Shown here: positions 55,204 to 60,808 of the stretch, piece by piece
How the letters are laid out: each line of letters starts with the position of its first letter
Numbering within the stretch: position 1 is the stretch's first letter
Made by a program: the position numbers and the translations under genes
NCBI GenBank assembly: GCA_965205975.1
Contig: OZ242195.1
Coordinates: 4,544,001 to 4,608,000, forward strand
Origin: Candidatus Latescibacterota bacterium
GTDB lineage: Bacteria > Latescibacterota > UBA2968
Direction of reading: 5' to 3'
DNA length: 64,000 nt
The notes under the pieces: model-generated
Database searches by the model: none
Seen by the model: only the letters and a program-made list of their open reading frames with translations
What the model was told of the DNA's origin: nothing

Positions 55204-55718
55204 TTAACTCTCTCCTGTTGTAGAAGCTCTAATATAGGTCCCAAAATAGGCCCTTGTTCGTTCCGTGGCTTCGGGTTCGTACTTTGATTTTATCGGTAGA
55301 GCTTGATCTTTGAAGTGTTTGTGGGATGCCTCCAGTTTTTGCTGCTTTAGTTTGGTGACGAGGTTGAAAATATCCTCGTTGGTAAGTTTGCCTTCAAATA
55401 CTGAAAACCACTGACTTTCTGCATCCAGGGCAGCTTTTCCACTTCTGTATTAAGGCTTCCGATCTGCTTAGCACGTTTCTGAAATGGCAAAAATCTCTTG
55501 ATGGCATTGATCACTTGTGAGACGGCAATTAGGGCTCCCCAAATTATGCCATATTCATTCCAAATAACCCATCCGCCAATGCTCGAACTGGAGGTGATAG
55601 CCAAAAATATCTGTATCCGGTTATCCCATTTTTCTAAGTGTATCTGATAGGCTTGTAAATAATAAACACTGGCCCTAAGTTGTACTAAGGTATCCCAGTA
55701 TAGGCTTTGATAGTTCAA
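55204..55718 (-). pseudogene. Frameshifted 2-TM SLATT-like protein
   Basis: Two hydrophobic segments (IFLAITSSSSIGGW..IIWGALIAVSQVI). After EKL (~55432) a shifted frame continues LDAESQWFSVFEGKLTNEDI...TGES to a stop at 55204. Confidence 0.6.
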
Positions 55719-56027: not shown

Positions 56028-58748
56028 ATGCGTTTCGGATATTTCTTTCTTCTGCTCTGTCTTCTGCCAATGCACGCGCTGGCAAGTTCGTCGCCCTACC
56101 AAAAGGTCGCCGATGTTTCGCTTGCAGGGTCGCTTTCTCTCCAGCACTATCGCCTCTCCAATGGTCTTCAGGTTGCGATTGTAGAAGACGATACCCGACC
56201 CGTTGTGACGTGCCAAATCGCCTATCGCGTGGGGTCTTCTCACGAAGCACCTGGTCGGCAGGGCATGGCGCATCTGGTTGAGCACCTCGTGGTGGTTCGC
56301 TCATTTCCAGAGTCGTTCTACCTTTTGGACGCGCCACATAGCAATGCTGGTACGTCGAAAGATGGTACGAGATACTACGCCACGGTTCCCAAAGCACAGC
56401 TGGATGCGCTGATCGCCAGTTTTGCTTGGGGTATGACACAGTTTGATGTTTCTCAGAAAGAATTCGATCTCGAAAAAGAGGTCGTTCTGGGTGAATGGGC
56501 GCGCAGTGCCAACAGTGCGCGTCGGCTTTTGTATAAAAAGTTATATGCCCGCATGTTTGCAGGACATCCCTATCGGTACGATATTTTGGGCCATCGTGAT
56601 ACGATTAAAACTTTTACTCTGGATCAAGCGACCGCATTTCACAAGCGTCATTACGTGCCAAACAATGCCTGTCTTGTAATTGTCGGCGATGTGAAAGAGG
56701 ATGATATTTTGCCCGTTGTGATTCAACATTTTGGAAGGATTCCGAAGGACGAGGGGTTTATTCCAGACGATGTTGATACGCTGGATGTCGCATCTGTACC
56801 CCAGGATTCCCTGCAATCTACAACTGATCTGCATTCTTCTGTTTGGGGTGTCTGGCATGTTCCAACGGATACACATCCAGACTCCTATCCTTTGTATTTG
56901 TTTGATAAAGCTCTTTTTGATGGTGAATATTCTCTTGCACGCCAAAGGCTAATTGGCCCGGGAAAGGTTCTCGGGGTGAATTCCTATTTTCTCAATATGC
57001 GCGATAAAGATCTGTTTTATTATATAGCTGACTTACCTTCGGGTACGCGTTATGAACCTGTGGTTTCGGCCATGCGACAAATTATTCAAGTAGCTATTGA
57101 TTTTTTTTCTGAAGAACGTCTTTTAGTGGCGAAAAACGAAGCGCGTAAGAGTTTATATCGCATGATAACCAGTCAGTTCCGTCTGGCAAATGTGATCTCT
57201 TTTGGATTCATTCGCACCAACGACCCTGCTTTTGATCTCAAGTGGATGCAGAATCTCGATGGCGTTACGGTGACCGATGTCAAGCGGGTGGCGAAGCAAT
57301 ATCTTTTAGATCAGCCGCCCCACACCTTTGTCCTGTACACGTCTCCAAAGCGAGCACCATCGCGGCGCGTATGGCTTTATGTGGGTGTTGTGTGGATTCT
57401 CGTGGGACTGGGAGGATACTGGTACTGGCGACGGCGAGCACTTGCGGTTGGATTATTTGCAGTCCTTTGCAATATTTCGGCGGCAGAGGCAGAAATCCCC
57501 AATCACAAGATATATTACGTGCAGGATACGCGCGTGCCGCAAACACGGCTTTCAATGAGGTATTATACAGGAGGAGATCTGCAGGAGACAATGGATACGC
57601 GCGGTTTGTCCTTTGCGTTTTTTCGCCTGAATGATCTGGCATTACACGGGGAAGATAAAAAGGAGATGGATCGGCTTGGCGCAGAGTTCTGGTTCAATAT
57701 TTCTGATCGATACGTCACCGTTAATCTGACTGTGTTTAGTGAAAATTTGGATGCAGCCTTAAAACGCCTGAAAGCGATGATGGAAGATCTCAGATTCTCT
57801 GAAGAATTGCTGGACAGAGAACGGGCGCGGATTATAGACGATTTTGAGGATTATGTTGATGATCATGAGGTGGCAGGAATTTTTTGTTATCATTTATACC
57901 AGGGCGAGTACCGGCGAGAGGGCTCGCGCACAGCACTTGAAAATTTGACAGCGCAAGACTTGCAACAATTTTGGGATCAGACCCTGCGCGCAAAAGTTCT
58001 CTTTTTTAGAGTGACTTCCGATCTGAGTAAATCGGAAATTGAACGCAGTTTGCACGTGATGACGGATGACCGACCTCGGGATGGTTTTTCGCCACTTCCT
58101 CGGCCAAAACGCAAAGAGATCAGGGGTTTGCACGCTTTAATTTCCCCAAGTACCCATCTGGCTAATTTTTCTTATTGGATAACCAATGGCTTGCCCCGCA
58201 CAAATGAGGATTGGTTTGCACAAGCGGTTTTGGTCAATGCGCTAAATCGCCTGTTGTTCGTTCGGCTTCGCGACCAGAAGGGCTGGTGTTATTCGGTTGG
58301 TGCGAGTATTCAGGAATGGACATCGCCACCAGTGCTGTATTTTTGGGCTGATCCTCGAGATGTTAATACTTCTAAGCTGATTCCCGAGATGTTTCGGTTG
58401 ATTTACCATTGTTTATCCGAGCCAGAGTTTTGGACAGAAGTGAAGAAAGGTCGCGAACGGCTCAAACGGGCGTATCATTTGCAACTCGGTCCGCAGACCA
58501 GGCTCAATCAGCAGGTGCGCTATGACCGCGATGGGGTGCCCGCTCTTTCTCTGGAGGAATACGAATCAGCTATAGATCGGGTGACGGAAGAAGATATTCG
58601 CCGCGTTTTCAGGCGACTGTTGAACTATCAGGTCAAAAATTTTTTGATGCTTATTTACGGGGATGCCGATCACGTTAAAGACGCATTGAGACGGGGGGAT
58701 ATCATGGGCAGAACAACGGTTTTTAATATTCAAACGCTGATTGAGTAA
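56028..58748 (+). CDS. M16 (pitrilysin/insulinase) zinc peptidase, two halves joined by a membrane segment
   Basis: Signal peptide, LSNGLQV, VGSSHE, HxxEH motif (HLVEH), NAGTSKDGT, YVPNNA. The second half has no HxxEH. Confidence 0.88.
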   Translation: MRFGYFFLLLCLLPMHALASSSPYQKVADVSLAGSLSLQHYRLSNGLQVAIVEDDTRPVVTCQIAYRVGSSHEAPGRQGMAHLVEHLVVVRSFPESFYLLDAPHSNAGTSKDGTRYYATVPKAQLDALIASFAWGMTQFDVSQKEFDLEKEVVLGEWARSANSARRLLYKKLYARMFAGHPYRYDILGHRDTIKTFTLDQATAFHKRHYVPNNACLVIVGDVKEDDILPVVIQHFGRIPKDEGFIPDDVDTLDVASVPQDSLQSTTDLHSSVWGVWHVPTDTHPDSYPLYLFDKALFDGEYSLARQRLIGPGKVLGVNSYFLNMRDKDLFYYIADLPSGTRYEPVVSAMRQIIQVAIDFFSEERLLVAKNEARKSLYRMITSQFRLANVISFGFIRTNDPAFDLKWMQNLDGVTVTDVKRVAKQYLLDQPPHTFVLYTSPKRAPSRRVWLYVGVVWILVGLGGYWYWRRRALAVGLFAVLCNISAAEAEIPNHKIYYVQDTRVPQTRLSMRYYTGGDLQETMDTRGLSFAFFRLNDLALHGEDKKEMDRLGAEFWFNISDRYVTVNLTVFSENLDAALKRLKAMMEDLRFSEELLDRERARIIDDFEDYVDDHEVAGIFCYHLYQGEYRREGSRTALENLTAQDLQQFWDQTLRAKVLFFRVTSDLSKSEIERSLHVMTDDRPRDGFSPLPRPKRKEIRGLHALISPSTHLANFSYWITNGLPRTNEDWFAQAVLVNALNRLLFVRLRDQKGWCYSVGASIQEWTSPPVLYFWADPRDVNTSKLIPEMFRLIYHCLSEPEFWTEVKKGRERLKRAYHLQLGPQTRLNQQVRYDRDGVPALSLEEYESAIDRVTEEDIRRVFRRLLNYQVKNFLMLIYGDADHVKDALRRGDIMGRTTVFNIQTLIE

Positions 58749-58766
58749 TAATTTTCGTTTATACTC

Positions 58767-58795
58767 TTGACGTTATTTTTGAAGTTGGGTATGTT
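58767..58795 (+). promoter_or_regulatory. Sigma70-type promoter of candidate sRNA-1
   Basis: TTGACG-17-TATGTT. Confidence 0.6.
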
Positions 58796-58801
58796 TTATG
58801 C

Positions 58802-58877
58802 ACTGCGGGTTGCTGCGGTATTTCTGTTTATTTCCTCCCTCCCGATAAATAGAGTGCTGTTGGCAGCCCGCTTTTTT
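58802..58877 (+). ncRNA. Candidate sRNA-1: single long hairpin with anti-SD-like loop UUCCUCCCUCCCG
   Basis: Three stacked helices rich in G-U pairs, which fixes the plus strand. 13-nt loop at 58832-58844, U6 tail and its own promoter. Confidence 0.55.
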
Positions 58878-58878
58878 A

Positions 58879-58907
58879 TTGACAGGGTTATTTTTGGAAT
58901 TTATTTT
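58879..58907 (+). promoter_or_regulatory. Sigma70-type promoter of candidate sRNA-2
   Basis: TTGACA-17-TATTTT starting 1 nt after the sRNA-1 T-tract. Confidence 0.6.
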
Positions 58908-58913
58908 GCTTTT

Positions 58914-58970
58914 GTAGCAGAAGTGCAAAGCTTTTGAGGGTGTCGGGAGGGAGCCCTCAAAGGCTTTTTT
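58914..58970 (+). ncRNA. Candidate sRNA-2: hairpin with loop UGUCGGGAGGGAG
   Basis: 14-bp stem (58927-58940 / 58954-58967), U-tail and its own promoter. The loop is complementary to the sRNA-1 loop. Confidence 0.5.
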
Positions 58971-58980
58971 ATTTTATAAA

Positions 58981-59180
58981 TAAAAAAGAGGCGCTGGTTG
59001 GGAGGGTATAACCAACGCCTCAAGGGATGTTGCATGGTACCGGATTAGACGCATTTGTACAGAAAAGAGTTCCAAGAAAGAGTAACGGCGTTGACTCAGC
59101 CGGGGTATAGGAGTCAACGCCGATATTTTTGCGACACGCTTTGTCGCATATTCTTTTACTTTTAAGGGCTGGAAAGGTTC
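58981..59180 (-). ncRNA. Candidate minus-strand RNA-3 with three hairpins (two displaying UAUACCC); 5' end uncertain
   Basis: Stems at 59130-59148, 59086-59122 (perfect 12 bp) and 58988-59021 (G-U on minus strand, followed by U6). Confidence 0.4.
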
Positions 59181-59299
59181 CCGAATGGTGTGATTTTTTG
59201 TGCGTTCAAGCAAATGACTGTGTACTTTTATCTTCTGGTATTCCGGTATATATTGTTGTGTTCTTAAAAAGATGTGATCACTGTGGGTATGGAGAATAC

Positions 59300-60808
59300 A
59301 TGCTGAACAAAAAAATAGAACGCTGGGGGCTGTGGCTCGGTCCGGTGATTGGGGTGGGGATCACAGTTTTTGGAGATCTCAAGCCGGGGCATCCCGAGGT
59401 GACACATACGGCAGGTGTGGCCTGCTGGATGGCGGTTTGGTGGATGACAGAGGCCGTGCCTTTGGCTGCGACGGCACTGTTGCCCGTGGTGCTGTTTCCC
59501 CTGCTGGGTATTATGAGCGGGCAAGAGGTTGCGCCACTTTATTTGAATCACATTATTTTTTTATTTGTGGGTGGTTTTATGGTGGCACTGTCCATGCAGC
59601 GCTGGAATTTACACAGGCGAATTGCCCTTCGCTTGCTGCTTCTTTTTGGGGGGTGTCCGCGATGTATTCTGACGGGATTTATGCTGGTAACGGCGTTTTT
59701 GTCCATGTGGATTTCCAATACGGCGACAACGATGATGATGGTGCCAATTGCGCTTGCAATTGTGGTTAGAATGGAAGAGCAGGGTGTGGCAAATCGTTCT
59801 TTTGGCACGGCGGTGTTTCTGGGGGTGGCTTATGCGGCTTCAATTGGCGGAAGTGCAACGCTTGTGGGTACGCCGACCAATTTGTCTTTTGTGAGGATTT
59901 TATCCATTCATTTTTCAGAGGTTCCCGAGATTTCGTTTGCGACATGGTTTGCGTTTGCTCTGCCTCTGGCATGTGTGATGCTCGTTTGTGCGTGGGGTGC
60001 GCTTTGTCTCGTTTTTGGCATTCGCGGTCGCGGCGATGATATTGATATGAGTGTGGTGCGAACGCAATATGCCGAGTTGGGACCGATGTCGTTTGCCGAG
60101 AAGATCGTACTGACCGATTTTGTATTGTTGGCGCTGTTGTGGTTGTCGAGACGTCCCATTCAAATTGGAGATTGGACGTTGCCGGGCTGGTCTCAGTTTT
60201 TCGAGTCTGGCGGATTGATAACCGATGGGTCGGTTGCTATGGCAATGGCTCTGATTTTGTTTGTCGTGCCCGCGCGAGATGGCGCGAGATCCAGGGTGAT
60301 GGATTGGCAAACGGCGGGCAACGTGCCCTGGCATATTGTGTTGTTGATTGGCGGTGGATTTGCTCTGGCAAGTGGGTTTAAGGAGTCGGGGTTGTCGCTC
60401 TGGTGCGCGCAGCAGTTGGAGGGTATGGGGCGCTTGCATCCTCTATTTTTGGTCGGTGGTTTGTGTGTGATGATGACTTTTTTGACTGAGTTGACTTCCA
60501 ATACGGCGACGGCTGAGATGTTTCTTCCGGTTTTGGCGGCGTTGTCTGTAGCTGTGGGTCTCAATCCATTGCTGCTGATGATTCCAGCCACGTTGTCGTG
60601 TTCTTGTGCGTTTATGTTGCCAGTAGCTACGCCACCCAATGCGATTGTGTTTGGCACGGATAGAATTTCCATGCGCGATATGGCGCGTGTGGGTGTGTGG
60701 TTGAATTTGGTTGGGGCAGTGATGATTACTGCTGCGATTGCTGTTGTTGGTCGCGTTGTGCTGGGTATTGAACTTGGGGTAATGCCCGATTGGGCGAGGA
60801 TAGAGTAG
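59300..60808 (+). CDS. SLC13/DASS-family Na+-dependent dicarboxylate/sulfate transporter
   Basis: WWMTEAVPL, LSMWISNTAT, GGSATLVGTPTN, LTELTSNTAT, AFMLPVATPPNAIVFG. Confidence 0.95.
   Translation: MLNKKIERWGLWLGPVIGVGITVFGDLKPGHPEVTHTAGVACWMAVWWMTEAVPLAATALLPVVLFPLLGIMSGQEVAPLYLNHIIFLFVGGFMVALSMQRWNLHRRIALRLLLLFGGCPRCILTGFMLVTAFLSMWISNTATTMMMVPIALAIVVRMEEQGVANRSFGTAVFLGVAYAASIGGSATLVGTPTNLSFVRILSIHFSEVPEISFATWFAFALPLACVMLVCAWGALCLVFGIRGRGDDIDMSVVRTQYAELGPMSFAEKIVLTDFVLLALLWLSRRPIQIGDWTLPGWSQFFESGGLITDGSVAMAMALILFVVPARDGARSRVMDWQTAGNVPWHIVLLIGGGFALASGFKESGLSLWCAQQLEGMGRLHPLFLVGGLCVMMTFLTELTSNTATAEMFLPVLAALSVAVGLNPLLLMIPATLSCSCAFMLPVATPPNAIVFGTDRISMRDMARVGVWLNLVGAVMITAAIAVVGRVVLGIELGVMPDWARIE

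Follow-up and report, generated by a model that had tools for sequence, protein, structure and literature searches.

The minus strand of the gap between an M16 peptidase gene and an SLC13 symporter gene in a Candidatus Latescibacterota genome carries a real pair of small RNAs (sRNAs), RNA4 and RNA3, which represent new sRNA families and probably act as the repressive arm of an envelope-stress response of the σE type. This reading is built on the structure, strand and promoter conservation of the hairpins, on the sharing of the promoter motif with envelope genes and on the enrichment of a seed complement, from which expression, the σ factor, direct pairing, repression and all targets are deduced. 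The analysed window comprises 64,000 nt of contig OZ242195.1 (genome G000), and the gap (58749-59299) lies between two genes on the plus strand. It also contains two predicted plus-strand RNAs, RNA1 and RNA2 (Table 1). Elsewhere in the window, a 123-aa ORF (55347-55718, minus strand) without a Pfam match has two hydrophobic stretches and adjoins the yggT gene.

Table 1. Features of the RNA cluster and its flanking genes (positions in the window).
Feature	Position	Strand	Remarks
M16 peptidase gene	56028..58748	+	Pfam; flank
RNA1	58802..58877	+	σ70-type promoter 58767-58795; long hairpin, loop CCUCCCUCCCGA
RNA2	58914..58970	+	σ70-type promoter 58879-58907; loop motif CGGGAGGGA, U-tail; candidate sponge
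RNA3, ~60-nt sRNA	58981..59040	-	model R3; predicted start
RNA3 terminator hairpin and U6 tail	58982..59021	-	loop CCCUCCC at 59006-59000
RNA3 single-stranded 5' tail, predicted seed	59024..59039	-	16 invariant columns in alignment A3
RNA3 promoter, -10 box CGTCTAA	59045..59051	-	17-nt spacer; invariant in A3
RNA3 promoter, -35 box GGAAC	59069..59073	-	invariant in A3, spacer diverges
RNA4, ~70-nt sRNA	59080..59150	-	start and end predicted from promoter and terminator
RNA4 terminator hairpin, 12 bp	59086..59122	-	weak tail in this genome
RNA4 loop seed CCCCGGC	59099..59105	-	invariant in 11/11 rows of alignment A4
RNA4 5' hairpin, 7 bp	59130..59148	-	folding
RNA4 promoter, -10 box, AGTAAAA here	59154..59160	-	16-nt spacer; CGTA/CGTT in diverged relatives
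RNA4 promoter, -35 box GGAAC (σE/ECF type)	59177..59181	-	invariant in alignments A1 and A4
SLC13/sodium:sulfate symporter gene	59300..60808	+	Pfam; flank

In the first-pass annotation, the stretch had been described as the third member of an sRNA cluster, transcribed divergently from the SLC13 gene. The hairpins named there were found again: the 12-bp terminator hairpin at 59021-58988, in which an A/C mismatch on the plus strand becomes a G-U pair on the minus strand and which has a U6 tail and the loop AUACCCUCCC, the perfect 12-bp stem at 59122-59086 with the loop CUAUACCCCGGCU, and the 7-bp hairpin at 59148-59130. The complementarity of the loop CCCUCCC to the loop of RNA2 (called sRNA-2 there) was likewise found, over 7 nt, and among the 40 relatives searched the stretch is conserved in 20/20 genomes of the same genus. 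The assignment to a minus-strand non-coding RNA of the cluster holds, whereas the single third member turned out to be two transcription units. Two further elements were not retained. Both boxes of the suggested promoter TTGCTT/CACCAT are kept in only 2/21 genomes of the genus, and UAUACCC, taken for a shared motif, occurs in the RNA3 loop of only 11/21. A genome-wide search for a family of such loop hairpins yielded none among the 861 hairpins of the genome, and a dispersed repeat or REP-like element was ruled out, as the stretch is single-copy and no such loop family exists among these hairpins. When the GTDB collection was searched with a pattern for the middle hairpin, all 19 matches carried the title Latescibacterota or Latescibacteria.

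Folding of both strands, as proposed in the first pass, resulted in minus-strand z-scores of -7.8 for the stem at 58988-59021, -4.9 for 59086-59122 and -2.9 for 59130-59148. The whole 236 nt reached -3.95 on the minus strand, with 0/200 shuffles as good. Since the plus strand is likewise well folded (-3.04), folding energy alone does not assign the strand. It is assigned by the substitution pattern: 7/7 distinct non-Watson-Crick pair types are G-U when read on the minus strand and none is A-C, counted over the two 12-bp stems in 21 genus genomes, plus G023 for RNA4, excluding the RNA3 of G018, which is degenerate, and a single position beyond the stem. When more distant genera are included, 132/132 cells of the RNA4 terminator stem and 156/156 cells of the RNA3 terminator stem are paired, each with three pairs changed on both sides. 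Although the relatives are not independent, this is the pattern of RNA stems read on the minus strand. These are real hairpins, subject to selection at the RNA level on this strand. The earlier statement that no minus-strand protein gene ends here is right in so far as both neighbours are encoded on the plus strand, but a 79-codon frame with a TTG start spans 59213-58974 on the minus strand. A small protein gene was rejected, since this frame is broken in 9/23 genomes (including G001, G048 and G049).

RNA4 has its own ECF-type promoter in 21/21 genus genomes and RNA3 in 18/21, and in the alignments of both promoters the boxes are fixed while the spacers drift. The RNA4 promoter occurs with a spacer of 16 nt in 15/21 genomes and of 17 nt in 6/21, and its -10 box in this genome departs from the consensus. 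Besides the promoter boxes, the conserved elements are CCCCGGCU in the RNA4 loop, the RNA3 5' tail and CCCUCCC in RNA3. At the position of the RNA4 5' hairpin, G023, G048 and G049 have a GCG-opened hairpin of different sequence. Inserts of ~150-200 nt separate the RNA4 terminator from the RNA3 promoter in G012 and G001; these inserts (L026, L034) have short words in common and are possibly miniature mobile repeats. The genus g9 (G048, G049) retains the full series of promoter, RNA4, U-run, promoter and RNA3, flanked by different neighbours. The second family keeps the RNA3 -10 box, with TGAAAC or GGAAAC as -35 box, and RNA3 promoter and tail are lost in 3/21 genus genomes (G017, G011, G018). 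As read from the genomes, the locus is best described as two predicted genes, RNA4 (~59150->59080) and RNA3 (~59040->58981), rather than one.

Because the RNA4 tail is weak in 16/21 genus genomes, a read-through RNA of ~170 nt containing both RNA4 and RNA3 is possible in this genome; a U-run is present in G001, G011, G012, G017, G018, G048 and G049. That such a read-through RNA, made from the same promoters, is the main product here is rather unlikely. It would fit the weak tail and the retention of the RNA3 hairpin without an RNA3 promoter in G017 and G011, but it is opposed by the conservation of the RNA3 promoter, by the inserts that part the two units, by the U-tails of both RNAs in G048 and G049, and by the occurrence of RNA3 in the second family without a detected RNA4.

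The distribution of the two RNAs differs. The RNA4 model R2 matches 24/53 genomes of the order, belonging to the genera g1, g4 and g9, and 0/22 genomes of the second family; a promoter-plus-seed pattern for distant RNA4 resulted in approximately chance-level matches outside G023, G048 and G049. The RNA3 model R3 matches 21/27 chosen genomes at E<=0.5. Among 24 further R3 matches that were inspected, promoter, tail and terminator were found in G024, g6 and g11; the remainder are mostly terminators without relation to RNA3. Across the phylum, R3 matched 38 of 150 genomes, three of them outside the order, of which G119, on inspection, has the promoter and an RNA3-like stem. Judged by these models, RNA3 spans the order and RNA4 is limited to three genera. 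In G024 (L210, upstream of 1501), the slot of RNA4 directly before RNA3 is occupied by a gene with a σE-type promoter, a U-tailed terminator and another loop, possibly a seed swap. Other hairpin RNAs with CUCCCUCCC loops are preceded by σE-type promoters in L224 (G029) and L366 (G119); the hairpin RNA in G029 closely follows a σ70-type RNA that contains a G-rich stretch.

To assign the promoters, the motif GGAAC-N-[CA]GT was searched in intergenic regions before the genes of G000, where it was found 18 times at spacer 16 and 14 times at spacer 17, compared to 2-6 matches at 12 other spacers, but 13 each at spacers 14 and 25. The GGAAC-N14 and GGAAC-N25 sites perhaps reflect a repeat or another σ. 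Of the 32 genes listed behind the motif with spacers 16 and 17, 20 were picked by eye and compared to Pfam. Among these are genes for Omp85 with POTRA domains (BamA), YfiO (BamD), trypsin with PDZ (DegP) and a rotamase, furthermore a BamB-like propeller, TPR proteins, a redoxin and an RND pump, as well as two kinases, a σ54 activator, CorC, a hydrolase and two genes without a Pfam match. The RNA3 and RNA4 promoters match those of the bam/degP genes of this genome. Upstream of bamD, the motif is present in 14/27 genomes from both families (29 matches, of which 2 at contig edges were left out), versus 0/81 coding control windows. For E. coli σE, GGAACTT is described as -35 element and YaeT, YfiO and DegP as members of the core regulon (PMC1312014).

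G000 has 21 σ70-family matches. Two operons, ECF σ/anti-σ/DegS-like and ECF σ/anti-σ/Spy-like, have motif-like sites upstream; neither of the two ECF σ factors reaches the RpoE cut-off. The leaders of the σ-factor genes G000:4380492 and G000:4689080 contain GGGAGGG runs that match the loops of RNA1 and RNA3, and a feedback on σ translation is possible. GGGAGGG is also found at -37 of skp/ompH (G000:2304305-2304853, plus strand), located behind bamA. In the second family, bamD has RNA2 or RNA1 at a distance of 3-4 kb (L355 and L363 in G033 and G036; G046 contig C265).

The predicted targets of RNA4 were derived from its loop CCCCGGCU, the complement of which, GCCGGGG, occurs within -60 to +5 of 21/4,723 called genes. 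Ten of these 21 leaders belong to signal-peptide genes, compared to 541/4,723 overall (p 4e-5; 15 motifs were tried, and signal peptides and start codons were called by the author's own heuristics). GCCGGGG ranks second among 13,166 7-mers for signal-peptide leaders, behind a start-codon word, and is the sole enriched one of 21 permutations. The enrichment persists without a paralogous leader (9/20) and among genes with free leaders (8/13), while GGGAGGG, the complement of the RNA3 and RNA1 loops, is not enriched in signal-peptide leaders. Among the genes with GCCGGGG are those of two TonB-dependent receptors, of three short proteins whose ends look barrel-like, of an FGE-domain protein and of a serpin lipoprotein. 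One of the short proteins, with 212 aa, was scored as OMP β-barrel by ESM Atlas features, and its sequence pattern agrees; its single-sequence fold has a pLDDT of 31, and the label refers to features and sequence pattern. The predicted RNA4 duplexes comprise 7-10 contiguous bp at -20 to -59 from the start codon. In the leader of the 212-aa barrel gene, the GCCGGG core or a G-U variant is kept in 12/12 genomes of g1 and g9, and the core is also present in 4/10 genomes of other genera in which no RNA4 was detected. The site in the leader of the GWxTD gene is kept in 6/9 genomes of g1 and in 0/3 of g9. The site of the TonB receptor is missing in the closest orthologues and occurs at shifted places in four others. 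The enrichment is strong in one genome, with individual sites that turn over.

For the RNA3 tail, the best predicted partner, ranking first of 4,723 leaders, is the region from the SD to codon 2 of a MotA/TolQ/ExbB gene. This gene heads a series of exbB-exbD-exbD-tonB-like genes (the exbD and tonB labels come from sequence reading), which follows a TPR gene that has a site of the σE type. The duplex of the tail with the exbB leader reaches -21.5 to -26.4 kcal/mol in 13/15 genomes having both parts, from both families. The exceptions are G024 and G042, in which both seed and leader have changed and the compensatory GTG start predicted for these ACG-seed genomes is absent. Where an RNA3 tail was not detected (G017, G018, G021, G052), the exbB leader shows the same conservation, and cognate seed-leader pairs score no better than crossed pairs; for these reasons, co-evolution of RNA3 and exbB is not demonstrated.

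Regarding the RNA machinery, the 98%-complete single-contig genome has no PF17209 match for Hfq, and neither ProQ nor Jag was found in it. RNase III and RNase E/G are present, and no RNase J was found over the family cut-off. Public transcriptome data were also inspected: 18 RNA runs contain 0.05-0.20 of the words, and in low-depth contigs of relatives from 4/18 of these runs, genes and intergenic DNA are covered alike, with no information on strand or level.

Taken together, released ECF σ would transcribe bamA, bamD, degP and chaperone genes together with RNA4 and RNA3. RNA4 would expose CCCCGGCU in its terminator loop and pair over 7-10 bp with GCCGGGG in OMP and lipoprotein leaders, 20-59 nt upstream of the start codon, and the free 5' tail of RNA3 would cover the SD and AUG of the exbB/tolQ-type gene. 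The likely outcome would be less new envelope protein, by blocked initiation and by RNase III or RNase E/G cleavage, without Hfq. It is quite improbable that the mRNAs are instead stabilised or activated by σE-type sRNAs pairing at these sites, comparable to RoxS-yflS or to FoxJ at G-rich terminators. The RNA4 sites do lie upstream of the SD, some just behind a plausible -10 box and thus at the mRNA 5' end, and FoxJ is reported to activate some targets (PMC11005410). However, RNase J is missing over the cut-off, the RNA3 duplex covers SD and AUG, and known σE sRNAs are described mainly as repressors of OMPs.

The putative σE-type pair is accompanied by RNA1 and RNA2 on the opposite strand. RNA1 has a folding z-score of -5.4 on the plus strand and -0.25 on the minus strand, and its pattern is found in 24/53 genomes of the order and also in G048 and G049. 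The RNA2 promoter overlaps the terminator tail of RNA1. The RNA2 loop pattern occurs in 40/53 genomes of the order, frequently in the absence of RNA1 and with a few chance coding matches among them, and of nine further places with the pattern that were inspected, seven are RNA2 genes and two are chance matches. The loops of RNA1 and RNA2 are complementary over 11 nt. Between RNA2 and RNA3, complementarity is at least 7 nt in 25/27 genomes and at least 9 nt in 12; in this genome it is just 7 nt, which is no better than in shuffles (p~0.08), and the co-folding model used leaves out loop-loop pairing. In g6, RNA2 occurs without an upstream RNA1, the UCCCUCCCG of RNA3 is located in the tail rather than in the loop, and the RNA2 complementarity overlaps the end of the RNA3 seed in 2/3 genomes. 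In G046, RNA1 has no RNA2 behind it. A role of RNA2 as a sponge of RNA3 and RNA1, like that of RosA for RoxS, is plausible from these complementarities. RosA is a G-rich RNA.

The complementarities could also mean that the C-rich loops serve mainly for RNA-RNA titration, or for an RNA-only toxin-antitoxin system with RNA2, and that the mRNA matches are secondary. The 11-nt RNA1-RNA2 match would fit this, as would the RNA2-RNA3 match, which persists even when the motif shifts from the loop to the 5' tail, but the reading is very unlikely: the RNA4 loop matches RNA2 poorly and envelope leaders strongly, RNA1 before RNA2 in g6 and RNA2 in G046 are missing, unlike in an obligate pair, and the RNA3-RNA2 match in this genome is weak.

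The region between RNA2 and RNA3 varies in the relatives. A conserved 58-aa ORF (ending in ...PLGWQSNK) is located there in L040:1278-1454 (plus strand), L033 and L127; it has no NCBIfam match and is absent from G000. In G013, G014 and G020, a σ70-family gene followed by the ORF lies between RNA2 and RNA3, with an in-frame stop in G014, while G011, G017 and G018 have the ORF alone. This cassette has its own promoter and terminator and is lost in G000, which is why the terminators of RNA2 and RNA3 face each other here. Because of the inserts in relatives, a tmRNA/6S/SRP-like housekeeping RNA with an integration site was considered and rejected, as the inserts consist of the σ70-family gene and the 58-aa ORF. 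It is highly improbable that the hairpins are merely terminators or insulators for convergent transcription, an SLC13 leader or part of a small-protein gene: the plus-strand cassette ends just before RNA3 in many relatives, the plus strand folds well and the 79-codon frame spans the stretch, but the cassette has its own terminator, the minus strand is the one favoured by the substitutions, a terminator would have no need of invariant loops, tail and promoter boxes, SLC13 is not the neighbour outside the genus, and the frame is often broken.

A wider arrangement around the σE-type pair can be proposed tentatively and is less likely true than not. Here, the four RNAs would form a hub without Hfq or ProQ, in which the seeds of the σE-driven RNA4 and RNA3 would be an independently evolved non-coding arm of the envelope-stress response and the σ70-driven RNA2 an inbuilt decoy by which the threshold for RNA3 and RNA1 is set. 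RNA4 would serve OMPs and lipoproteins and RNA3 the ExbB/TolQ-type energiser, the invariant RNA2 loop would mimic an SD region, and CCCUCCCG would be a 'handle' that has been kept although its place, either the 5' tail or the terminator loop, differs from family to family. If this is true, the relocation of CCCUCCCG would document, in evolutionary terms, that a σE sRNA is under sponge control, and an energiser gene as target together with an adjacent decoy RNA would extend the known scheme. In the literature found, the sRNA arm of the σE response has so far been described from Proteobacteria and Fusobacterium; the Latescibacterota RNAs would be a further independent case of a σE RNA repressor and would lend weight to the idea that σE requires an RNA repressor in every bacterium with an outer membrane, with or without Hfq. 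As promoter, seed and targets were read from genomes alone, testable functions can be assigned to the regulatory RNAs of uncultured phyla, and each prediction (σ, promoter, sRNA, leader and candidate sponge) is amenable to reporter tests.

In the window, Rfam gave 0 matches at the gathering cut-off (best E=1), and a literature search, with subscription papers and supplements outside its scope, found no account of such RNAs in this phylum. The cuckoo/CcsR RNAs (PMC4615179) share with the cluster the arrangement of short hairpin RNAs with anti-SD-like C-rich loops and a small ORF, here in the cluster of relatives. They have two to four adjacent hairpins with CCUCCUCCC loops, whereas here each RNA has one C-rich loop; membership was rejected, as the loops AUACCCUCCC and CUAUACCCCGGCU are located in separate units, differ from CCUCCUCCC and lack an Rfam match. 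With RoxS/RsaE and its sponge RosA (PMC8216469), the cluster shares a C-rich sRNA, a separate titrating RNA, predicted in this case, and a host without a known hub protein. The RoxS/RsaE regulon is described as metabolic, while the candidate sponge here is only predicted and clustered with its partners; the RsaE Rfam model reached 19.4 bits versus a cut-off of 79 (E=1).

RybB, MicA, MicL, MicV and VrrA of the Gammaproteobacteria are likewise preceded by a σE promoter with a GGAAC -35 box and use short seeds against OMP and lipoprotein mRNAs, and a σE regulon with YaeT/BamA, YfiO/BamD and DegP is common to the gammaproteobacterial system (PMC1312014) and this genome. This group is mostly Hfq-associated, and membership of the Hfq-dependent proteobacterial σE sRNAs was rejected, as the RNA3/RNA4 genome has no Hfq match. 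Further differences are the missing Rfam match, the terminator loop as RNA4 seed and the -10 element CGT(C/A/T) versus TCAAA.

The closest parallel in mode of action is provided by FoxI/FoxJ of Fusobacterium nucleatum, two C-rich sRNAs that depend on σE and, without Hfq, repress membrane proteins (PMC9546586, PMC11005410). Common to both are the sRNA pair, the host without Hfq or ProQ, C-rich seeds and membrane-protein targets, predicted in this case; the FoxJ seed also sits in a hairpin loop, and the FoxI/FoxJ regulon also includes bamA. RNA3 and RNA4 differ from FoxI/FoxJ in the phylum, the tandem genes, the predicted targets and the adjoining G-rich partner RNA, and the σ dependence, shown in the sources for FoxI/FoxJ, is deduced here from the promoters. 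In the Rfam comparison, no match ties RNA3/RNA4 to FoxI/FoxJ. Belonging to no described family by these comparisons, RNA3 and RNA4 are predicted to work like FoxI/FoxJ or RybB/MicA.
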